A stretch of DNA of 64,000 bases from Escherichia coli (lineage in GTDB: Bacteria > Pseudomonadota > Gammaproteobacteria > Enterobacterales > Enterobacteriaceae): NCBI RefSeq assembly GCF_048403405.1, contig NZ_CP183129.1. The stretch is one strand, 5' to 3'. Position numbers and translations under genes: made by a program. How positions within the stretch are numbered: the first letter of the stretch is position 1; every line of letters begins with the position of its first letter. Shown here piece after piece: positions 5,540 through 21,169 of the stretch. The notes under the pieces were generated by a model that had not been told where the DNA came from, searched no databases, and saw nothing but the letters and a program-made list of their open reading frames with translations.

Positions 5540-5870
5540 ATCAGCAGCAGAGCGCAAAGCCGCGCAGCGCGCTCGGCAGTCCGCCGCCGGTGAGCGCAAA
5601 ATTGAACTGGTGCTGGATAAGCAGGAGCAGGAAATGCTGGCGCGGAACTGCGCCGCCCGGCGCCCTGGTCACGATCCCTATGAAATGGCCGAGTACATCG
5701 CGCTGCTGATCCGCCAGGATGATGCACGTGTGCGCGGGCGTATAAAATCGATCAGTAGAAAACGTTGCGGTAAGTGCGGCGAGAGAGTTCCAGTTAATTC
5801 ATGTCCGTGTAATGGTGACTCGCAATGCTGGGTGACTAAAGGCTGGCATGAAACGAAATTAATAGTGTGA
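5529..5870 (+). CDS. Hypothetical protein with C-terminal Cys cluster (CGKCGERVPVNSCPC)
   Basis: 113-aa ORF, last gene before a terminator hairpin. Confidence 0.4.
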   Translation: MMAKSAAERKAAQRARQSAAGERKIELVLDKQEQEMLARNCAARRPGHDPYEMAEYIALLIRQDDARVRGRIKSISRKRCGKCGERVPVNSCPCNGDSQCWVTKGWHETKLIV

Positions 5871-5919
5871 CATGTCACGAGTAGATTATGCATGATGAAT
5901 TTGATGGGTTTTGAATACT

Positions 5920-5945
5920 GCCGCCAACTATGGCGGCTTTATTTT
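5920..5945 (+). terminator. Rho-independent terminator closing the early gene block
   Basis: Hairpin GCCGCC-AACTAT-GGCGGC followed by TTTATTTT. Confidence 0.5.
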
Positions 5946-5952
5946 GCATGGT

Positions 5953-5981
5953 ACTATTACCACAACGGTAACTATTACCAC
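5953..5981 (+). repeat. Direct repeat ACTATTACCAC x2 (18-bp period) upstream of the terminase small subunit gene
   Basis: Two exact 11-mers at 5953-5963 and 5971-5981 between the terminator and the terS start. Confidence 0.5.
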
Positions 5982-5988
5982 GGTGGTT

Positions 5989-6585
5989 ATGATGCCTGCT
6001 GAACCTAAAACCTATAAACGCAAATCAACGCAATTTAAGCCGCTCACAGCAATGCAGGAGGCTTATTGCCAGTCATACATCAAAACGCCTGAAAACCAGA
6101 CTCAGGCAGCGATTAACGCAGGATTCTCCCCAAATACAGCGGCAGTTAAAGCCAGTGTCATGATGCGCGATGAACGCATTCAAAAACGGATTGCCGAGTT
6201 GATGGAGGAGCGCAACAAACGAATGCGCGTCAGTGCTGATTACGTTCTCATGCGCCTGGTGGAGATCGACCAGATGGACGTGATCGATATCCTCAACGAC
6301 GATGGGAGCCTTAAACCAATCCGCGAGTGGCCGAAAATCTGGCGCACTACGCTTAGTGGCTTTGATCTGTCATCGACCATCATGAACATGAACGAGGATT
6401 CGATAGAGACAATCCTCAAAAAAATTAAATGGCCTGACAAGGTGAAGAACCTCGAACTGATTGGTAAGCACGTCGACGTCAACGCATTCAAAGAACGCCT
6501 GGATGTTAATGTGAATGTGACAATTGCTGATCGCATAGCGGCAGCCAGGAAGCGACTCAAAGAACGTCAGGATGGTAATCAGTGA
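5989..6585 (+). CDS. Terminase small subunit
   Basis: Placed directly upstream of and overlapping the large terminase; helical DNA-binding-type N-terminus; ATG pair at 5989/5992 after GGTGG (upstream in-frame Thr-rich extension from 5911 judged non-coding). Confidence 0.55.
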   Translation: MMPAEPKTYKRKSTQFKPLTAMQEAYCQSYIKTPENQTQAAINAGFSPNTAAVKASVMMRDERIQKRIAELMEERNKRMRVSADYVLMRLVEIDQMDVIDILNDDGSLKPIREWPKIWRTTLSGFDLSSTIMNMNEDSIETILKKIKWPDKVKNLELIGKHVDVNAFKERLDVNVNVTIADRIAAARKRLKERQDGNQ

Positions 6586-8057
6586 CAGATACAGCGTTAT
6601 CTCCTGAAGAGCAGTTGATCGAGGATATTGCAGGGTTTACTCACGATCCGCTTGGTTATGCCCTCTATGCGTTCCCGTGGGGGGAAGAGGGTACTGAACT
6701 GGCACATGCTACCGGCCCACGTCAGTGGCAGGCTGATGCGTTCCGAGAGATACGTGATCACCTGCAGAATCCAGAGACGCGCTATCAGCCGCTTATGCTG
6801 GCACGCGCTTCTGGTCACGGTATTGGTAAATCCGCATTCATCTCAATGCTGATCAACTGGGGCATGTCCACTTGCGAGGATTGTAAGGTCGTGGTGACCG
6901 CCAACACCGACAACCAGCTACGAACGAAGACCTGGCCGGAAATTATCAAGTGGTCAAACCTTGCTATCACGAAAGACTGGTTTACCTGTACCGCTACCGC
7001 GATGTACAGCAATGACCCTGGGCACGACAAGCGGTGGCGCGCTGACGCAATCCCCTGGTCTGAGCACAACACTGAGGCGTTCGCGGGACTACACAACGAG
7101 CGCAAACGCATCATCGTGGTGTTTGATGAAGCGTCGAACATTGCGGATCTGGTGTGGGAAGTTGCCGAGGGTGCGCTTACGGACGAAGACACCGAAATCA
7201 TCTGGGTGGCGTTCGGGAACCCGACGCGTAACACCGGGCGTTTCCGTGAGTGTTTCCGCAAGTACAAACACCGCTGGAAGTGTGCGCAGATTGACAGCCG
7301 GACGGTGGAAGGCACCAACAAACAGCAGTTGCAGAAATGGGTTGATGACTACGGGGAAGACAGCGACTTCGTTAAAATCCGTGTGCGCGGCATATTCCCT
7401 GATGCATCTGAATTGCAGTTTATTCCTACCGGTCTTACTGACGAGGCAATGAAACGGGTGGTAACTGCTGCGCAGGTGGCACATGCTCCGGTGATAATCG
7501 GCGTTGACCCTGCATACTCCGGTGTTGATGACGCGGTGATATACCTGCGGCAGGGGCTGCACAGTAAGGTGCTGTGGACCGGCAACAAGACCATTGACGA
7601 TCTGATTATGGCAAAGCGTATCGCTGACTTTGAAGACCAGTATCAGGCTGACGCGGTGTTCATCGACTTCGGTTACGGAACCGGTTTGAAGTCAATCGGT
7701 GACGGCTGGGGTCGTACATGGCAACTTGTTCCGTTCGGCGGTGCGTCCACTGACCCGCAGATGCTTAACAAGCGTGGGGAGATGTTCAACTCATGTAAGA
7801 CATGGCTGAGGCTGGGCGGCATGCTGGATGACCAGGAAACAGCAGACGACCTGTCGGCGGCAGAGTACAAAGTTCGTGTGGACGGTAAAATCGTTATCGA
7901 ACCGAAGGAAGATATCAAAGAGCGTCTTGGGCGTTCGCCGGGTAAAGGCGATGCGCTACTGCTGACGTTTGCTTTCCCTGTGTCGAAGCGTCTGCGAATT
8001 CCTGGGCAGCAGAACCAGCAAGGCAAGGCCATCACAGATTATGACCCGTATGCTTAA
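6582..8057 (+). CDS. Terminase large subunit
   Basis: 491 aa with ATPase region (GHGIGKSAF...VVFDEASNI) and C-terminal nuclease-like region, as recalled for large terminases. Confidence 0.85.
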   Translation: MTDTALSPEEQLIEDIAGFTHDPLGYALYAFPWGEEGTELAHATGPRQWQADAFREIRDHLQNPETRYQPLMLARASGHGIGKSAFISMLINWGMSTCEDCKVVVTANTDNQLRTKTWPEIIKWSNLAITKDWFTCTATAMYSNDPGHDKRWRADAIPWSEHNTEAFAGLHNERKRIIVVFDEASNIADLVWEVAEGALTDEDTEIIWVAFGNPTRNTGRFRECFRKYKHRWKCAQIDSRTVEGTNKQQLQKWVDDYGEDSDFVKIRVRGIFPDASELQFIPTGLTDEAMKRVVTAAQVAHAPVIIGVDPAYSGVDDAVIYLRQGLHSKVLWTGNKTIDDLIMAKRIADFEDQYQADAVFIDFGYGTGLKSIGDGWGRTWQLVPFGGASTDPQMLNKRGEMFNSCKTWLRLGGMLDDQETADDLSAAEYKVRVDGKIVIEPKEDIKERLGRSPGKGDALLLTFAFPVSKRLRIPGQQNQQGKAITDYDPYA

Positions 8058-8107
8058 TCCGCTGGTGGGGATAATGTCGTTGATATCCTCTGATGAGGAT
8101 AAAACAA

Positions 8108-8135
8108 AGCCAGCTCATCGGCTGGCTGTTTGTGA
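8108..8135. terminator. Bidirectional terminator hairpin between the large terminase and the minus-strand gene
   Basis: AGCCAGC-TCATC-GGCTGGCT with a T-rich run on the minus strand and GTTTGTG on the plus strand. Confidence 0.4.
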
Positions 8136-8147
8136 CATGTCACGGTG

Positions 8148-8504
8148 TTATTGCTCGCTTAGCTTCTGCTTCAGCAAGTAACCTTCGAGCATCCAGATTT
8201 TGTTTACAGCATTCTGCCGGGCAATCTTCCGACCAATTTCTGCATCAAAGTTTTCCGGGCTTGCACAGGCGCTCTCTCCGGTGACGGTGAAGCCATTCTT
8301 CAGCACCAGTACGCAGAAAGTAAGGAGGTCTGTAGATTTATGCGCTGTCCACGCATCGCCAATGCCCATATTGGCGGCACGAATACCGTCATAAGCAGTA
8401 AAGAAATGCTCTTCAAGAATGATGCTTTCGATATATTGGGGCGTAACTCGCGGTGCCGTTTTGCCTTTCTCAACGATTTCTTTTTCGATTTGCTGGTCGT
8501 TCAT
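8148..8504 (-). CDS. Hypothetical protein encoded opposite to the packaging and head genes (moron-like)
   Basis: 118-aa ORF with RBS AGGTGAG; bracketed by hairpin terminators on both sides. Confidence 0.5.
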   Translation of the reverse strand: MNDQQIEKEIVEKGKTAPRVTPQYIESIILEEHFFTAYDGIRAANMGIGDAWTAHKSTDLLTFCVLVLKNGFTVTGESACASPENFDAEIGRKIARQNAVNKIWMLEGYLLKQKLSEQ

Positions 8505-8511
8505 AATCTCA

Positions 8512-8538
8512 CCTTAAAAAAATGCCCGGCGAACCGGG
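8512..8538 (-). terminator. Putative minus-strand terminator immediately upstream of the RBS of the 8504 gene
   Basis: Hairpin CCCGGTTCGCCGGG followed by TTTTTTT on the minus strand. Confidence 0.4.
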
Positions 8539-8614
8539 AGAACTGGAAGCAATGAGTTATGCCTTCCGTGGCTGTACGGGTTTACAGCATGAAGTCATCG
8601 CAATGGCGTCCTGC

Positions 8615-8659
8615 TGTAAAAAGGGCGGTGATAGTCCTTCAAGGGAAACCATCACCGCC
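8615..8659 (-). terminator. Putative minus-strand terminator downstream of the tRNA
   Basis: 9-bp stem GGCGGTGAT/ATCACCGCC with 18-nt loop, followed on the minus strand by CTTTTTA. Confidence 0.4.
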
Positions 8660-8702
8660 AAGCCCCTGGAACTTCTGGCATCACGGTCCTTAGGCGTGAT
8701 TC

Positions 8703-8779
8703 TGGCGTGGCATGCAGGATTCGAACCTGCGACCAACCGCTTAGAAGGCGGTTGCTCTGTCCAACTGAGCTAATGCCAC
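8703..8779 (-). tRNA. tRNA-Arg (anticodon UCU), phage-encoded
   Basis: 77-nt cloverleaf folded by hand: acceptor GTGGCAT/ATGCCAC, D-arm GCTC-AGTTGGACA-GAGC, anticodon arm ACCGC-CTTCTAA-GCGGT, T-arm GCAGG-TTCGAAT-CCTGC, discriminator G, encoded CCA. Confidence 0.85.
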
Positions 8780-9101
8780 AACGCTGAGAGCACTTAGCCT
8801 GTTAAGGCGCCACACTTTGTCGCGGCTCCATAAATGCTCTCATCGTTGCACCCTCGTCTCTTCCGAGGCGTCACACCGAATCGCCGGGATGGTGAATCCC
8901 CGTGCGCGGAATAAAACCGCTCGACTTGCACATTCCGGCTACCTGGTTCGTTTGCCCGAGCAAGTGAGGGTGCCCCTTAAACGTATCCAGACCGCTATCG
9001 ACGCATGTGCCATACACCGTACTGCTCAAAATAAAAGCTCACCCCACCTGTTCAATTTAACGACAAGCCAGTCAGGTTAATAACCGGAATGAACTCTTTA
9101 C

Positions 9102-9116
9102 TTACCTGAAGGGTAA
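9102..9116. promoter_or_regulatory. Palindrome TTACC-TGAAG-GGTAA (operator-like site 4) upstream of the head-gene operon
   Basis: 15-bp palindrome about 45 nt upstream of TATGTGGTT-N5-GGTAATA and the 9206 start. Confidence 0.45.
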
Positions 9117-9205
9117 TAATTGTGCGTTAAATGTCAACCACCTACGATAAATAAATCATATGTGGTTAAATTGGTAATAATTTAATTGCGTACGGAGTCA
9201 TTGAT

Positions 9206-9412
9206 ATGTGCATGGGTAGCTCACCATCAGTGCCTGCAACACCAGAAGTTCAGGCAGCACCACAGGAGCAGGATGCCGCCGTTGTTGATGCCCGCGACGA
9301 AGAAACACGTCGCCGTCGCGCTGCTGCTGGTCGTAGTTCTACGCTGCTTACCGGTTCTCAGGGCGACACATCAACCGCTAATACCAGCGGTAAAACGCTG
9401 CTTGGTCAGTAA
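9206..9412 (+). CDS. Small Pro/Ala/Arg-rich hypothetical protein preceding the portal gene
   Basis: ATG preceded by GGAG; 68 aa; first gene after the promoter-like module. Confidence 0.4.
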   Translation: MCMGSSPSVPATPEVQAAPQEQDAAVVDARDEETRRRRAAAGRSSTLLTGSQGDTSTANTSGKTLLGQ

Positions 9413-9426
9413 CCGGAGTCATTGAA

Positions 9427-11106
9427 ATGGCGGAAACAACTAAAGAGCGATTGAACAAACAGTTCGCACAACTTGAAAGCGAGCGTCAGTCGTTCGAGCC
9501 GCACTGGCGCGAGTTGAGTGATTACATCAACCCGCGTGGTTCCCGCTTTCTGACTTCTGAGGTCAACCGTAACGATCGACGCAATACACGCATTATTGAT
9601 TCGACCGGGACTATGGCGGCGCGCACTCTCGCCAGCGGCATGATGTCAGGCATCACAAGCCCCGCGCGTCCGTGGTTTCGCCTGGCTACGCCTGATCCTG
9701 AAATGATGGATTATGGCCCTGTTAAGTTGTGGCTTGAGGCGGTGCAGAACCGCATGAACGATATGTTCAATAAGTCGAATCTCTATCAGTCGCTGCCGCA
9801 GTTATACGGAAGCCTCGGCACATACAGCACTGGTGCAATGGCAGTGCTGGAGGATGACGAGGACATTATTCGCACAATGCCATTCCCGATAGGCAGTTAC
9901 TACCTAGCTAACTCACCTCGTGGCAGTGTGGACACCTGTTTTCGCAAGTTCTCTATGACTGTTCGTCAGCTTGTTCAGGAGTTCGGGCTAAATAACGTCA
10001 GCGAATCCGTAAAAAGCATGTGGGAAAGCGGAACCTACGAGAAGTGGATTGAAGTGATGCATTCGGTTTACCCGAACATTGACCGCGATACATCGAAGCT
10101 GGATAGCAAGAACAAGCCATTCAAATCGGTTTATTACGAGGTTGGTGGCGATAACGACAAGTTGTTGCGTGAGTCCGGATTCGATGAGTTTCCAATTATG
10201 GCTCCGCGCTGGGAAGTTAACGGCGAAGATGTTTATGGATCATCATGCCCGGGTATGCTGGCGCTTGGACCTGTTAAGGCATTGCAGCTTCTCCAGAAGC
10301 GCAAGTCGCAGATCATCGACAAAGTGACAAACCCTCCGATGGTTGCCCCTACCACTCTCAGAACACAGAGTGTTTCGTTACTTCCTGGTGGCGTCACATA
10401 CGTAGATCAACTGACTGGACAGGAAGGATTAAGGCCTGTTTATCAGGTTAACCCTAACACTGCGGATTTAATCAGCGACATCCAAGATACGCGGCAGACC
10501 ATCAACAGCGCCTACTTTGTCGATCTGTTCATGATGTTGCAGAACATCAATACCCGCTCGATGCCTGTTGAAGCGGTGATCGAAATGAAAGAAGAAAAAC
10601 TTCTGATGTTGGGGCCGGTTCTGGAGCGTCTGAACGACGAATGTCTTAATCCTCTCATTGACCGCGCTTTCTCGATGATGGTGCGTAAAAACATGCTGCC
10701 GCCACCGCCTGACGCGATGGAAGGCATGCCCCTGAAGGTCGAATACATTTCCGTCATGGCTCAGGCGCAGAAGTCTATCGGCCTGTCCAGTCTGGCGTCC
10801 ACGGTTAACTTCATTGGTCAACTTGCGCAAGCGAAACCAGAAGCTCTCGACAAACTCAATGTTGATCAGGCGATCGATGCATTCGCTGATATGTCCGGAG
10901 TGTCTCCAACCGTCATTGTTCCGCAGGAACAGGTTGAGCAGGCTCGCCAGCAACGGGCACAGCAGCAACAGCAGCAACAAATGATGGCGATGGGAATGGA
11001 GGCGGCACAGGGCGCCAAGACGCTAAGCGAAGCTAAAACTTCGGATCCGAGTGTTTTGTCAGCTATGGCGAATGCAGTTAGTGGTCAGGGTGGGCAATCA
11101 CAATGA
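9427..11106 (+). CDS. Portal (head-tail connector) protein, T7 gp8-like
   Basis: 559 aa, podovirus connector-like size and sequence character; position between terminase and scaffold/capsid. Confidence 0.75.
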   Translation: MAETTKERLNKQFAQLESERQSFEPHWRELSDYINPRGSRFLTSEVNRNDRRNTRIIDSTGTMAARTLASGMMSGITSPARPWFRLATPDPEMMDYGPVKLWLEAVQNRMNDMFNKSNLYQSLPQLYGSLGTYSTGAMAVLEDDEDIIRTMPFPIGSYYLANSPRGSVDTCFRKFSMTVRQLVQEFGLNNVSESVKSMWESGTYEKWIEVMHSVYPNIDRDTSKLDSKNKPFKSVYYEVGGDNDKLLRESGFDEFPIMAPRWEVNGEDVYGSSCPGMLALGPVKALQLLQKRKSQIIDKVTNPPMVAPTTLRTQSVSLLPGGVTYVDQLTGQEGLRPVYQVNPNTADLISDIQDTRQTINSAYFVDLFMMLQNINTRSMPVEAVIEMKEEKLLMLGPVLERLNDECLNPLIDRAFSMMVRKNMLPPPPDAMEGMPLKVEYISVMAQAQKSIGLSSLASTVNFIGQLAQAKPEALDKLNVDQAIDAFADMSGVSPTVIVPQEQVEQARQQRAQQQQQQQMMAMGMEAAQGAKTLSEAKTSDPSVLSAMANAVSGQGGQSQ

Positions 11107-11399
11107 CAGATTACGAAGATGATCAACTGAAAGAAGAAAACGCCCGTAAGCAACGTGACATGGCACAGCGTGAAATTGATGACATTCGCTTTGTCATGAG
11201 CAGTGAACAGGGGCGTCGCGTTGTCTGGTCGGTGCTGGAGAAAGGCCGTGTGTTTTCCGCTATCTCACCGATGGACGCTATGGCAATGGCATTTAATGAG
11301 GGGCAACGCAATCTGGCGCTGGAACTGTTTCAGCGCGTTATGGCGCATTGCCCTGAACAGTATTTGAAGATGGCCAAAGAGGCCAGTGAACAGGAGTGA
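11103..11399 (+). CDS. Hypothetical head-assembly-region protein
   Basis: 98-aa acidic ORF translationally coupled to the portal gene (ATGA overlap). Confidence 0.4.
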   Translation: MTDYEDDQLKEENARKQRDMAQREIDDIRFVMSSEQGRRVVWSVLEKGRVFSAISPMDAMAMAFNEGQRNLALELFQRVMAHCPEQYLKMAKEASEQE

Positions 11400-18422: not shown

Positions 18423-21169
18423 TGCCTGTTGTTCCTACTACATCCGGACGTCAGGTGCAAAGTCGTGGTGTGCAAACCGGTGGTTTTCAGATCTTCGATG
18501 TTCCTCAAGCAGATCAGGTGCTGGCGAATGTCGCAGATCAGTATGCGGTGGCATATGGTGAAGCCAGGCAGAAAGCGAATGTTGCTATGGCCCAGGAGGC
18601 GTTACTGCAATTTAACCAATTTGCAGATGACCAGATTAACAACCCTGAAAGTGGGCTGATTTCTAAACAGGGTAAAAACGCTCTTGGTCAGAGTGACGCT
18701 GTTATGAAAAATATGCAGGAAAGGGCTCAGGCATTATTAGGCTCAATTCCTGAAAGTGAGGAAAGGAATAAATTATCCTTTCAACTCCAGCAGTCTATGC
18801 AGTCTTATTACAATCAGGCACGTCGATATGAAGTTGGGCAGTTTCAGCAATTCCAAGATCAAACGTATTTGTCAGGAAATGCATTGGCTGTCACTCAGTC
18901 TGCGGGGCTATATAGCGATAACCAAGCATTTGTCGATTTAGCCAAGCAGCGATTTGAATCTATTGATCAATACGCTGATGCGCATGGGCTTCCTGATGAG
19001 TGGCGTGTTCAGCAGAAAACTCAGCTCAAGGAACAAATGGGGCAGCAAGCATGGATAGGAAATATCGCTCAAAAATACAACGAGTTTCTTCAGGTTAATG
19101 GAGAGCCAGGGGATCTTGATGGTGTGAGTCGTGCAATATCACATGGTAATTCATTGGATGCTCGTGGTTTACGTAATAATAACCCTGGTAATATTGAAGC
19201 GAGCAAATCTAACCCGTGGGAAGGTCAGATCGGTAGCGATGGACGTTTTGCAACGTTTGCTACCCCTGAGCATGGAATCCGCGCGTTGGGTAAAAATATG
19301 TTGTCTTACCAGCGTCAAGGCTATGACACCGTTAGCGAGATTGTTAATCGCTATGCTCCGGCTAGTGATGGTAATAATACTGATGCTTATATTAGGGCAT
19401 TGTGTGGTGAGCTTGGTGTTGGGGAGAATGATCAGCTTGATATCTCTAACCCAAAGACACTAGCTGCTTTATGTGCTGGGATTATTAAACACGAAAATGG
19501 CAGTATGCCTTATAGCACCGAACAGCTTGAAACTGGTATCTCGGCAGCCCTTGGTCTAACTAACCTTGATTCACCTAAGCGTTATACAGGCAATGCGGCA
19601 TTTGATGCTATGAGCCCTCAAATGCAAATACAGGCATTGAGGCAGGCTAATGAGCTGAGAAATCAGTACCGCCAGCAGTATGCGGACCAGCTTAGCACCG
19701 TAGTTAAAGATGCATATTCAGCCCTTGATGAAGGATTGAAACCTGAGAAGTTACCTTCTGAGGACGATTTTATCCGGGCCAATGGTCCGCGCATTGGCGC
19801 TATGAAGTGGAAGGATATGCAGGCGCAGATACAATATGGAGGTGTCATTGGTGCCGCTAAAGACCTCACTCCAGAAGGACGACAAGACATTCTTGAACGT
19901 TTACGTCCACAGGATCCAAACGCTCCTGGATTTGCAGCTAACCAGCAACGCTGGGAGAAAATGCAGGCCAAATTTAAAGAGATGGATAGGGAGTGGGAGA
20001 TTCAGCAGGGAAGAAACAGGTTCGTGTCTTCAATGCAAAATAACTTCCCGCTGGACCCGAACGACAAAAACAATCAGGCAGCGGTAGACCGTTATTTCGC
20101 GCAGGATATCGCGCCTTCGTTTTCCATATCTGATCCGCAGAGCATCAATACACTGGTCACCGTCACAACTAAAAGCGGCATGATACCAACTCAGGTTAAA
20201 ACAATGCTTAACAGTGGAGCAACATCAAGAGATCCTGCGCTGGTTGTCCCGATGGCAAAATTCTACGGTCAGTTATTCGATAATAATCCGGCGGCAGCGG
20301 CAACACTTGATAAAAGTACGATGGCATTTTACGGCAAGGTTTACGATTATTCCCGCGCTGGCGTGCCGGAGGATAAGGCTGTTGATATGGCTTACAGCCA
20401 GGTGTTCCAACAGGATGACCGAATGAAACAGATGCTTTCCACTGCCATGCGAGACAAAAAATATGTCGCGGCGAGGGCAACTGCTGCACAAAATAACGCC
20501 AGCAGTCTGACTTCCTTTGGTTCGTGGTCTCCGGATATTACCGATCCAGGAAAATCAAATGCGGCCTATCAGCGAGATTACCAGACAATTTACGATGCTA
20601 ACTTTGTACAGACAGGTGGCGATGCAGAACAGGCTGAGAAAATGACCAATGCCATGATCAGAACCACCTGGGGAGTTTCTACGGTTAATGGCAAAGCAGA
20701 GGTTATGAAGTATGCACCTGAGGCATTGTACGGAGTAAATAATGGTGCTGGTAACTGGATACAGGGGCAGTGGGAGCAGGAAAAACGCGAGCTTAAATCA
20801 AAATCCTTTGGCGGTCCTCGCAGTGATACGGACTTAATACTTGTTTCTGATGGCCTTACGGCAAGGGATAGGAGTTATGCTGTTATGGTTTTACAGCCTG
20901 ACGCAAACGGAGCGATAGAACCGAGAAATTATATTGGAGAAAATGGTCTCCCTGTTCGTTTCAAGCCGGATCAGCTGACATCTCCAATGTACAGGCAAAC
21001 CATTAAGTTCCAGCAACAGCGTGTTGATGAGGCTAGAGTGCGGAGAGAAGGCAATCCGCTGCCGCAGTTCAGCAATAAAGATGGATATACTCCTCCAGAT
21101 CTGACCAAACCATTCGGTTATGGTTCAGCCAATTACCTTCCGAGCAATATATACGCAGGGGGCAAATAA
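18422..21169 (+). CDS. Internal virion / ejection protein (T7 gp15-like core protein)
   Basis: 915 aa, in the gp15 position; contains a conserved-looking block NNPGNIEASKSNPWEGQ...HGIRALGKNMLSY. Confidence 0.5.
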   Translation: MPVVPTTSGRQVQSRGVQTGGFQIFDVPQADQVLANVADQYAVAYGEARQKANVAMAQEALLQFNQFADDQINNPESGLISKQGKNALGQSDAVMKNMQERAQALLGSIPESEERNKLSFQLQQSMQSYYNQARRYEVGQFQQFQDQTYLSGNALAVTQSAGLYSDNQAFVDLAKQRFESIDQYADAHGLPDEWRVQQKTQLKEQMGQQAWIGNIAQKYNEFLQVNGEPGDLDGVSRAISHGNSLDARGLRNNNPGNIEASKSNPWEGQIGSDGRFATFATPEHGIRALGKNMLSYQRQGYDTVSEIVNRYAPASDGNNTDAYIRALCGELGVGENDQLDISNPKTLAALCAGIIKHENGSMPYSTEQLETGISAALGLTNLDSPKRYTGNAAFDAMSPQMQIQALRQANELRNQYRQQYADQLSTVVKDAYSALDEGLKPEKLPSEDDFIRANGPRIGAMKWKDMQAQIQYGGVIGAAKDLTPEGRQDILERLRPQDPNAPGFAANQQRWEKMQAKFKEMDREWEIQQGRNRFVSSMQNNFPLDPNDKNNQAAVDRYFAQDIAPSFSISDPQSINTLVTVTTKSGMIPTQVKTMLNSGATSRDPALVVPMAKFYGQLFDNNPAAAATLDKSTMAFYGKVYDYSRAGVPEDKAVDMAYSQVFQQDDRMKQMLSTAMRDKKYVAARATAAQNNASSLTSFGSWSPDITDPGKSNAAYQRDYQTIYDANFVQTGGDAEQAEKMTNAMIRTTWGVSTVNGKAEVMKYAPEALYGVNNGAGNWIQGQWEQEKRELKSKSFGGPRSDTDLILVSDGLTARDRSYAVMVLQPDANGAIEPRNYIGENGLPVRFKPDQLTSPMYRQTIKFQQQRVDEARVRREGNPLPQFSNKDGYTPPDLTKPFGYGSANYLPSNIYAGGK

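Follow-up and report, generated by a model that had tools for sequence, protein, structure and literature searches.

The stretch of DNA analysed here (the window) comprises 64,000 nucleotides of the Escherichia coli contig NZ_CP183129.1. The locus of interest lies in a phiV10-like E. coli prophage (Uetakevirus), in which TerS (5911–6585), TerL (6582–8057), a 68-amino-acid open reading frame (ORF; 9206–9412) and the portal protein (9427–11106) are encoded on the plus strand. Antisense to these genes, between TerL and the portal gene, is a small gene that we refer to as acb4. The features in and around it are as follows:

8108–8127, either strand: bidirectional terminator-like hairpin common to the convergent TerL and acb4 genes (terminator scan, fold, phiV10 annotation)
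8132–8143, either strand: 12-bp perfect palindrome, GTGACATGTCAC, 4 nt past the acb4 stop codon, in the conserved downstream flank of the slot
8148–8504, minus strand: acb4-family gene, ATG start, 118 amino acids, matching PF13876 ('Gp49/Sf6 gp66', the Acb4 sponge family)
8301–8504, minus strand: N-terminal half of acb4, a swapped allele relative to phiV10 (DNA comparison)
8508–8515, minus strand: Shine–Dalgarno sequence, AAGGUGAG, read directly in the sequence
8516–8538, minus strand: upstream hairpin T2, CCCGG-UUCG-CCGGG followed by CAUUUUUUU (terminator scan; fold −8.3 kcal/mol)
8615–8659, minus strand: strong intrinsic terminator-like hairpin T1, 3′ of the tRNA, a 14-bp stem followed by CUUUUUAC (terminator scan, fold)
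8703–8779, minus strand: tRNA-Arg, anticodon UCU (ARAGORN; Rfam tRNA, 73.3 bits)
8827–9031, minus strand: conserved structured non-coding RNA, unclassified, a possible leader of the minus-strand unit (alignments, covariation)
9110–9137, minus strand: candidate sigma70 promoter P1, TTGACA-N16-TACCCT (PWM score 10.9)

A preliminary description of this DNA had reported a 118-amino-acid gene with a good ribosome-binding site, antisense to the late operon, next to a tRNA and with hairpins on both sides, and each of these features was recovered. The start region reads ...CAUUUUUUUAAGGUGAGAUU-AUG on the minus strand, with the Shine–Dalgarno sequence (8515→8508) at −11 to −4 relative to the start codon. 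TerL and the portal gene flank the ORF on the opposite strand, tRNA-Arg(UCU) lies on the same strand 198 nt upstream, and the hairpins are that at 8108–8127 downstream and T2 and T1 upstream. Homology and family size together indicate that the ORF is a real gene, not a chance ORF, because it matches the full PF13876 profile (E = 1.7e-34) and the family has more than 5,000 representatives at 50% identity. Three plus-strand ORFs that overlap acb4 (8093–8284, 8200–8394 and 8340–8555) were treated as spurious, as was an 83-amino-acid ORF over the tRNA that is annotated as p04 in phiV10.

In a Pfam profile search, residues 20–115 of the protein matched PF13876 (Phage_gp49_66) over profile positions 1–82 of 82, with a score of 118.6 bits against a gathering cut-off of 27 bits. 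The protein is assigned to PHROG 322, and PGAP names it 'Gp49 family protein'. PF13876 has been equated with the Acb4 (anti-CBASS 4) family (Chang et al., bioRxiv 10.1101/2024.12.30.630793), and the sole PDB sequence match (phmmer) is SPO1 Acb4 (9e4w_A). An AlphaFold (AF2) model of the protein (pLDDT 91.8, pTM 0.81) has N-terminal helices, a three-strand antiparallel β-core and a long C-terminal helix, features of the Acb4 protomer fold (elements H3-12, H22-27, E29-36, H37-44, H56-60, E61-68, E73-79 and H88-117). The best 13 Foldseek matches of this model in the PDB are all chains of 9E4W (probability 1.00, TM(target) 0.63–0.72), and the next match has a probability of 0.13. Four copies joined by 30-residue Gly/Ser linkers and modelled with a 14-sequence alignment, as an AlphaFold workaround for the oligomer, gave a low-confidence model, with a pLDDT of 53.1 and a pTM of 0.38. 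Neither PADLOC nor NCBIfam returned a match for the protein, an uninformative outcome for a family that lacks an NCBIfam model and is not itself a defence system. Thus, by full-profile sequence match and predicted fold, the protein belongs to the Acb4/PF13876 family. The preliminary description had named a homologue among conserved virion or packaging proteins as evidence against its proposal; what the searches returned instead was PF13876, with Acb4 as the only PDB match.

Members of this family act as sponges. All 8 of the 8 Acb4 homologues tested bound 3′3′-cGAMP and none (0 of 8) bound c-di-GMP; homologues from Gram-negative hosts also bind 3′3′-c-di-AMP (3′3′-cAA) (Chang et al., bioRxiv 10.1101/2024.12.30.630793). 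Table S3 of that study lists E. coli A0A0C5F232, phiV10 Q287B5 and Sf6 Q716B1 as Acb4 homologues, and A0A0C5F232 differs from the 118-amino-acid protein at 2 residues. We found no published record of biochemical tests of phiV10 gp03, Sf6 gp66 (Q716B1) or A0A0C5F232. In vivo function has been shown for N4 Acb4 and for the Acb4–Sequestin fusion of Pseudomonas phage Ab09, and SPO1 Acb4 is active early in lytic infection. Given PF13876 membership, the 9E4W-like model and the Table S3 listing of a near-identical protein, cyclic-dinucleotide sequestration is the most likely function. We therefore estimate a probability of roughly 80% that the acb4 product is an Acb4 sponge that sequesters cyclic dinucleotides and defeats CBASS. 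By analogy with characterized members, it would form a homotetramer of about 53 kDa with inter-subunit pockets that bind the alarm signals of host CD-NTases, predicted to be 3′3′-cGAMP and related molecules, including 3′3′-c-di-AMP, as for Gram-negative homologues. The CBASS effector would then never be activated, and the phiV10-like phage would complete infection or induction.

The protein resembles SPO1 Acb4 in being a small phage protein of the same Pfam family, with a predicted fold match unique in the PDB and a common β-core motif (T..C......N.F...G.S......NF....GR). Identity between the two is approximately 24–35%; the protein described here is 22 residues longer, carries an additional, conserved stretch at its N terminus (IExEI..KG..APRVTP..IE) as well as a variable loop at residues ~38–60, and is prophage-borne in a Gram-negative host. 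We compared the SPO1 contact set K36, F48, E49, V56, Y57, F62, N63, I66, T70 and K81. F48, F62 and I66 are kept (F72, F86 and I90), as is the G67-R68 motif (G91-R92), and N63, which contacts the ligand via its backbone, corresponds to D87. Four contacts are changed (E49→T73, V56→C80, Y57→A81 and T70→I94), and K36 and K81 are without a clear counterpart and not reliably alignable. With several SPO1 ligand contacts not conserved, ligand specificity may differ.

This difference is the basis of the strongest alternative, in which the fold and sponge principle are the same and the target is another signal: cyclic trinucleotides, the Thoeris signals gcADPR or His-ADPR, Pycsar cNMPs or type III CRISPR cOA. 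The residues of SPO1 Acb4 that read guanine (K36 and E49) and contact phosphate (Y57, T70 and K81) are not conserved. Specificity also varies with the host, as shown by the binding of 3′3′-cAA by Gram-negative homologues, and the Acb4 domain fusion of Ab09 binds 2′3′-cAA; close alleles differ by an exchange of their N-terminal half. However, counterparts of F62 and I66 in the adenine pocket, and of the stacking residue F48, are all present, and the uniform binding of 3′3′-cGAMP by the eight diverse homologues of Chang et al. also speaks against a different target, which we consider improbable.

Among the known enterobacterial homologues, phiV10 gp03 (YP_512257, Q287B5) lies at exactly this position, flanked by TerL and tRNA-Arg, and has a near-identical C-terminal core. 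It is 123 residues long compared with 118 here, with 70.7% protein identity overall, and its N-terminal half is a different allele: DNA identity is 58.8% with a 15-nt indel over the N-terminal half, compared with 94.8% over the C-terminal half, 99% over the leader and 100% over the tRNA. Other relatives carry other cargo between identical flanks at the acb4 site (E. coli 702/18, PF9285, AF206, SPN1S and Tyrion). The exchange runs from ATG to stop, the conserved flanks reaching the ATG and resuming at the stop codon, and the Shine–Dalgarno sequence is kept in phiV10, E. coli 702/18 and SPN1S, each with a different cargo. The palindrome GTGACATGTCAC in the downstream flank is conserved in phiV10, typing phage 9, VE-T9, SPN1S and Tyrion. 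It was also observed at module boundaries, with a second copy at 5867–5878 (0.17 chance matches expected).

In the phiV10-like prophage of PF9285, the slot holds a Tad2-like domain (PF11195, E = 1.2e-23, with PDB matches to Tad2); the presence of this sponge domain in a sister prophage suggests that the slot collects anti-signalling genes. Tad2, an anti-Thoeris sponge, is like Acb4 a small oligomeric nucleotide sponge, but its fold and family are unrelated and its targets are gcADPR-type Thoeris signals; Tad2 is frequently fused to Acb4. The SPN1S cargo is a lipoprotein/SPFH-like gene, and cargos without a known function are a phrog_4846 protein, its 73-residue N-domain fused to Tad2, and a 272-residue coiled-coil protein. 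N4 Acb4 (gp48/gp49) and the Ab09 Acb4–Sequestin protein are of the same family and likewise lie in a hot spot that gathers anti-signalling genes. However, those are lytic N4-like phages with the hot spot between the primase-polymerase and vRNAP genes, whereas acb4 is a single-domain gene, not a fusion, in the TerL–portal slot of a temperate Uetakevirus.

The hairpin downstream of acb4 (8127→8108) consists of AGCCAGCCGAUGAGCUGGCU and UUUGUUUUAU. It forms on the plus strand as well, behind TerL (−13.5 and −15 kcal/mol; z −3.4 and −2.9) and is annotated as the TerL terminator in the phiV10 record. Upstream, T1 with its U5 tail (8659→8624) folds at −22.8 kcal/mol (z −4.36), and none of 200 shuffles folds as well. 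T2, with a U7 tail, abuts the Shine–Dalgarno sequence, and is a terminator-like part of the 5′ leader of the cargo; its SPN1S counterpart (CCCAC-UUCG-GUGGG) has two compensatory pair changes, with loop and tail unchanged. In total, 5 terminator-like sites were observed in 7800–9500, compared with 1.5 ± 1.4 in shuffles. We considered a dedicated acb4 promoter and dropped it after consensus and PWM scans gave none between the upstream terminators and the Shine–Dalgarno sequence: the PWM scan of 8505–8702 found no promoter scoring ≥5, with candidates upstream of the tRNA only. The best of these, P1, has hexamers that are conserved among the window, phiV10, SPN1S and Tyrion, with a variable spacer. 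Across the window, the PWM yields 0.25 sites per kb and strand with scores ≥10, and a stricter sigma70 consensus scan of 7800–9500 found no site, P1 included.

Taken together, DNA comparison and annotation indicate a conserved accessory unit on the minus strand in which acb4 is the exchangeable cargo at the 3′ end, with the proposed order candidate P1, structured RNA, tRNA-Arg, two terminator-like hairpins, Shine–Dalgarno sequence, cargo, palindrome and bidirectional terminator. As no promoter of its own was found for acb4, transcription most likely enters upstream of the tRNA, and would then read through the hairpins into acb4; its predicted start is near 9103 on the minus strand. Such entry would make acb4 expression independent of the plus-strand packaging and head genes. 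Candidate P1, upstream of the tRNA, resembles an ordinary sigma70 promoter, so that acb4 may also be expressed in the lysogen; we found no transcript data on phiV10-like prophages in the NanoLuc-reporter and ZX5 phage literature.

This arrangement bears on the term 'moron' used in the preliminary description, which suits acb4 in part: it is an accessory gene in a variable slot, with a terminator of its own and unrelated cargo in relatives, but the sequence scans found no promoter of its own, and its standing as an autonomous moron is not supported. Like the lambdoid morons (lambda bor/lom, HK97 gp15), it is an extra, variable, terminator-bounded gene between conserved phage genes. Those, however, are promoter–gene–terminator units, whereas acb4 is without a detected promoter and is exchanged from ATG to stop within a conserved leader and trailer, and it is predicted to benefit the phage rather than the lysogen.

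A moron expressed in lysogeny for the benefit of the lysogen, through lysogenic conversion or superinfection exclusion, would fit the opposite strand, the terminator bracketing and the variable slot, as well as the lipoprotein/SPFH-like gene in the SPN1S slot and a sigma70-type candidate promoter shared with a tRNA that lysogens could express. We nevertheless regard it as very unlikely: the demonstrated role of the family is phage counter-defence, constitutive expression would blunt host CBASS and kill Panoptes-carrying hosts, and acb4 has no detected promoter directly upstream, two terminator-like hairpins separating it from P1. Judged by its family, which comprises phage counter-defence sponges, acb4 most likely serves phage counter-defence; a lysogenic-conversion function, or cargo for host benefit, is not supported. 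An RNA-binding or other non-immune small protein, or a packaging or virion accessory factor, recalls the likeness of the Acb4 monomer to dsRNA-binding domains (Chang et al., bioRxiv 10.1101/2024.12.30.630793) and the position between TerL and portal, but is hardly credible for an exchangeable cargo on the strand opposite to the structural genes that is absent from related phages keeping the same TerL and portal, and whose family occurs in unrelated contexts (the N4 anti-defence hot spot, Sf6 and SPO1).

With counter-defence as the predicted role, the label of an unknown moron is replaced by a specific, testable function. As another copy of a catalogued, common anti-CBASS sponge, acb4 itself adds little to what is known; roughly a tenth (~10%) of the complete E. 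coli genomes have DNA-level homologues, and the leader is present in ~500 E. coli genomes. A counter-defence gene is probably present in prophages of the phiV10 type and in the reporter and typing phages that descend from them; in the phiV10-like NanoLuc reporter phage, the insertion replaces recET, not the acb4 locus. Such a gene could alter host range on CBASS-positive strains. It could also sensitize phages to Panoptes-type guard systems; Acb4 sponge activity in vivo triggers the Panoptes guard system. The TerL–portal slot, in which Acb4, the Tad2 fusion and cargos without a known function alternate, offers a compact hunting ground for further anti-signalling genes.

The structured RNA upstream of the tRNA may merit separate study. 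In its alignment, 96.6% of cells are paired compared with 28–43% when the structure is slid, 10 pairs have double changes and none of 500 shuffles reaches the observed covariation values. A coding explanation for the block was rejected on the basis of indels that are not multiples of three and 19 invariant nucleotides without a wobble pattern. No Rfam family matched, not even when the short region was searched with E ≤ 10, and a full-text literature search with the invariant 19-mer found no paper. Within the window, ~80 nt separate candidate P1 from the beginning of the core, and both terminator-like hairpins, T1 and T2, follow it. Among 120 viral contigs, at least 44 have the RNA ~150 nt past a cI-like repressor gene encoded in the same orientation, the location of pL leaders. 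In position, after an early promoter and before terminators, it is like the put RNA of the HK022/HK639 type, the likeness being in position only; it differs in having no sequence or profile similarity, with no blastn or nhmmer match to the HK022 immunity region or HK639 (annotated putL-like RNA included).

These observations permit a joint reading, which we put forward as speculative and rather unlikely: acb4 would be the terminal cargo of an undescribed Uetakevirus accessory transcription unit, the RNA a processive antiterminator, and the slot cargos without a known function new anti-defence proteins. A sigma70 promoter would be followed by the ~190-nt structured RNA, tRNA-Arg, two intrinsic terminators and an exchangeable anti-signalling gene. 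The RNA, put-like in function and unrelated in sequence, would let RNA polymerase pass the terminators into the cargo; this RNA is also found in many lambdoid prophages, at the position of the pL leader.

Finally, the structured RNA is widespread in temperate enterobacterial phages. It adjoins trnI/ban in phage P1 and lies beside a tRNA in 28 of the 120 contigs, so that tRNA adjacency is not general.

The minus-strand open reading frame (ORF) at 8148–8504 encodes a 118-residue protein that, judged by sequence, predicted fold and published catalogue, belongs to the Acb4 family and most likely functions as an anti-CBASS sponge. Its assignment to the acb4 family is already known and not novel; PGAP annotates it as "Gp49 family protein". 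The product matches PF13876 (Phage_gp49_66) along the entire profile (E = 1.7e-34, 118.6 bits, cut-off 27) and falls in phrog_322, a PHROGs family listed as function unknown. The sole PDB sequence match is 9E4W, "anti-CBASS 4 (Acb4)" from Bacillus phage SPO1. Structure prediction, proposed as a check in the preliminary description, gave an AlphaFold2 model (41 homologues; pLDDT 91.8, pTM 0.81) with N-terminal helices, three β-strands and a long C-terminal helix. In a Foldseek search of the PDB, the best 13 matches were all 9E4W chains (probability 1.00, TM 0.63–0.72 normalised to target), and the first other match reached a probability of only 0.13. The product is neither a virion nor a packaging protein, the homology that would have argued against a cargo gene being absent.

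The family is large, with 5,074 representatives at 50% identity (E ≤ 1e-3), and tblastn places it in 622 phage records (N4-like, P22/Sf6-like, Ralstonia, Vibrio and other phages). Many representatives are longer than the window protein, as expected because Acb4 fusions are known. Acb4 was discovered by Chang et al. (bioRxiv 10.1101/2024.12.30.630793), who place it in PF13876 and take 1,331 Pfam members as the family. In that study Acb4 is a tetrameric pinwheel that takes up four 3'3'-cGAMP ligands in the interfaces between its protomers, with a Kd of about 157 nM, and it rescues T4 Δacb1 Δacb2 from CdnE CBASS; 3'3'-cGAMP was bound by 8 of 8 tested homologues, c-di-GMP by none, and c-di-AMP also by homologues of phages with Gram-negative hosts. 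Table S3 of the same study includes phiV10 Q287B5, Sf6 Q716B1 and E. coli A0A0C5F232, which differs from the window protein at two residues (I48V, A51S). Later work also equates PF13876 with Acb4, finds N4 Acb4 necessary and sufficient as trigger of the Panoptes guard system, and describes the Acb4–Sequestin fusion of Pseudomonas phage Ab09, within an anti-signalling hot spot, as a tetrameric sponge.

The window is an E. coli prophage of the phiV10-like type (genus Uetakevirus), which adjoins guaA in complete genomes. Its gene order is int, early-left genes, cI-like repressor, replication, TerS, TerL, Gp49 and tRNA-Arg on the opposite strand, portal, head and tail. At 7900–9500 its DNA matches that of phiV10, O157 typing phages 9 and 10, ZX5 and others at 95–98% identity. 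Of 5,426 complete E. coli genomes, 496 carry the 3-kb TerL-to-portal segment (≥80% coverage), 503 the leader 8505–8702 and 526 a DNA-level Gp49 homologue. As the preliminary description had it, the ORF has a good ribosome-binding site (a Shine–Dalgarno sequence at −11 to −4, read from the sequence), lies antisense to the late operon next to a phage tRNA, and has terminator-like hairpins on both sides; the region holds 5 terminator-like sites versus 1.5 ± 1.4 in shuffles. The minus-strand sequence ahead of the ORF reads CCCGGUUCGCCGGG-CAUUUUUUU-AAGGUGAG-AUU-AUG.

Features of the TerL–portal region
5911–6585, plus: TerS
6582–8057, plus: TerL
8127→8108, folds on both strands: downstream hairpin, the TerL terminator in the phiV10 record's annotation
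8148–8504, minus: acb4-family (Gp49) ORF, ATG start, 118 aa
8538→8525, minus: hairpin T2, 5-bp GC stem, UUCG loop, U7, immediately ahead of the Shine–Dalgarno sequence
8659→8624, minus: hairpin T1, 14-bp stem then U5, just past the tRNA; −22.8 kcal/mol, z −4.4
8703–8779, minus: tRNA-Arg(UCU)
8827–9031, minus: structured RNA element, about 190–205 nt, between P1 and the tRNA
9055→9028, minus: second candidate promoter, TTGAAC-N16-TATTTT, PWM score 10.35
9137→9110, minus: candidate promoter P1, TTGACA-N16-TACCCT, PWM score 10.9
9206–9412, plus: conserved 68-aa ORF
9427–11106, plus: portal

An 83-aa plus-strand ORF at 8522–8773, equivalent to the annotated hypothetical protein PhiV10p04 of phiV10, overlaps the tRNA-Arg gene and the terminator that follows it in antisense orientation, and is most likely a spurious call.

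The ligand-contacting residues were compared with those of the SPO1-type Acb4 from phage CampHawk, using phmmer and MAFFT alignments. The stacking F48 (F72 in the window protein), the adenine-pocket F62 and I66 (F86 and I90) and the G67-R68 motif are kept, and N63, a backbone contact, corresponds to D87. By contrast, the guanine-reading E49 is replaced by T73, V56 by C80, Y57 by A81 and T70 by I94; K36 and K81 found no placement in the alignment. Because E49, V56, Y57 and T70 are changed, family membership does not fix the ligand specificity, and the window protein may differ in ligand from the tested Acb4 proteins, although 100% of tested members bind cGAMP. Four linker-joined copies, modelled with AlphaFold as a stand-in for multimer prediction, gave a low-confidence model (pLDDT 53, pTM 0.38).

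The gene is a mosaic relative to phiV10, with 70.7% identity over the whole protein. DNA identity is 90.7% across the TerL end and spacer (8040–8147), 94.8% in the C-terminal half of the ORF (8148–8300), 99% in the leader (8505–8702) and 100% in the tRNA, versus 58.8% with a 15-nt indel in the N-terminal half (8301–8504; phiV10 locus L001 2430–2649). The breakpoints of this half are sharp, at the Shine–Dalgarno sequence and near codon 68. The N-terminal helices and variable loop have been swapped en bloc, giving a different allele from that of phiV10. Sf6 gp66 has the first ~40 residues in common with the window protein and a longer loop. Because K36 of SPO1 Acb4, in the region equivalent to the swapped half, reads the guanine base, the swap may tune ligand specificity.

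Exchange also extends to the whole gene. We aligned the window with the prophage of E. coli 702/18, its closest overall relative (98% over 25 kb), and Salmonella phage SPN1S. In all three, the upstream flank is kept as far as the start codon (...CAUUUUUUUAAGGUGAGAU(U/C)AUGA) and the downstream flank starts again with the stop codon (AAUAACACC-GUGACAUGUCAC-...terminator), and the ORFs in between are mutually unrelated.

Cargo between the conserved flanks
Window 8148–8504: Acb4/Gp49; also in VE-T9, phiV10 and 7 of 8 sampled E. coli genomes (one frameshifted)
E. coli 702/18, L007 19667–20086: phrog_4846, 139 aa
E. coli PF9285, L008 915–1421: 168 aa with a Tad2-like domain
Isolate AF206, L015 47–865: 272-aa coiled-coil protein, function unknown
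SPN1S, L005 2180–2600: lipoprotein/SPFH-like ORF
Enterobacter phage Tyrion, L006 2153–3611: DUF551 and two small ORFs; phage lacks the tRNA

The comparison indicates a slot in which cargo is swapped from ATG to stop, rather than an autonomous moron. The 139-aa cargo, present in 117 of the 5,426 genomes, had no match in Pfam or the PDB. Residues 1–73 of the PF9285 protein are the same as its N terminus, and residues 78–167 form the Tad2-like domain (PF11195, E = 1.2e-23; PDB Tad2/AcrIIA7 matches of ~1e-14). Two known nucleotide-sponge families, Acb4 and Tad2-like, thus alternate in the slot, so that genomic context is a separate argument for a role in counter-defence; the uncharacterised cargos are candidate anti-defence genes. 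In E. coli A3176 (L012 426–799) the Gp49/Acb4 slot gene is frameshifted into two pieces, a case of cargo decay in a resident prophage.

The preliminary description had proposed a moron carrying lysogeny-expressed cargo. Its structural part, an opposite-strand gene bracketed by terminators, stands. However, the ORF differs from a classical self-contained moron in being exchanged within a conserved leader and trailer and in the lack of a promoter of its own: no σ70-like promoter was seen between tRNA and ORF, a consensus scan giving none anywhere in 7800–9500 and a PWM scan no site scoring ≥5 in 8505–8702. The two top minus-strand candidates of the PWM scan are both upstream of the tRNA; sites with a score of at least 10 number 0.25 per kb per strand across the window. 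Both P1 hexamers are kept in the window, phiV10, SPN1S and Tyrion and the spacer sequence varies, as a real promoter would show. In the simplest model, the minus-strand unit would run P1, leader RNA, tRNA-Arg, T1, T2, cargo, and cargo expression would depend on read-through of two terminators. The U-run of T2 abuts the Shine–Dalgarno sequence, and its stem is CCCGG-UUCG-CCGGG in the window versus CCCAC-UUCG-GUGGG in SPN1S; kept with compensatory changes, T2 is therefore functional, not incidental. A lysogeny function finds no support in the known biology of the Acb4 family. The gene may be on in the lysogen, but expression tied to infection or induction is favoured, because the cGAMP-binding activity of SPO1 appears early in infection and a constitutive sponge would blunt host CBASS and be lethal with Panoptes.

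The element at 8827–9031 is a conserved structured RNA of no recognised class. By blastn, 86 phage records carry it: Uetakeviruses, P1/P7/D6-like phages (where it sits between trnI and ban), cdtI, Stx2c/Stx2a, Ayreon, 2H10, mEp390 and Klebsiella phage SopranoGao. Examples lie at 1465–1683 of the P1 locus (L017) and 1545–1752 of the cdtI locus (L018), and in SPN1S, Tyrion and loci L019, L020 and L022. In a 10-sequence alignment, 96.6% of cells are paired versus 28–43% in slid controls, and ten pairs show double (compensatory) changes versus 0–4; 0 of 500 shuffles attain the observed values. The covarying helices persist in a 34-sequence alignment, and the minus strand is favoured because of invariant G-U pairs. 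The element had no Rfam match and no sequence similarity to the HK022 or HK639 put RNAs, and a full-text search of a literature library found no paper with its invariant 19-mer GGTAGCCGGAATGTGCAAG, which occurs once each in at least 120 IMG/VR contigs (L025–L144). In 26 of these 120 tRNA-Arg follows the element, and in 2 a tRNA precedes it; in at least 44 a cI/LexA-like repressor gene of the same orientation precedes it by ~150 nt, which puts the element at the pL-leader position, many of these loci being lambdoid prophages. This position, together with the terminators that follow in the window, suggests the hypothesis of a processive-antitermination leader, although the element does not resemble the put RNAs in sequence.

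P1 forms one side of a divergent control region. The plus-strand block at ~9140–9205 (~65 nt), which directly precedes the 68-aa ORF and the portal operon, does not vary among four phages. Within it, at about 9166–9185, is the inverted repeat TTAAATT-N6-AATTTAA, a likely site of head-operon regulation.

A perfect 12-bp palindrome, GTGACATGTCAC, lies at 8132–8143, 4 nt past the ORF stop codon, with a second copy at 5867–5878 just upstream of TerS and a near-copy at 11155–11166 (chance expectation 0.17). It is kept at the downstream edge of the slot in 5 of 5 related phages and prophages, including phiV10, SPN1S and Tyrion, whatever the cargo. In VE-T9 (L003) it occurs at 18868, 21133 and 38620, the last of the three following the ejection-protein operon. 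The palindrome thus recurs at operon or module boundaries, and may either bind a regulator or mark the junctions between modules.
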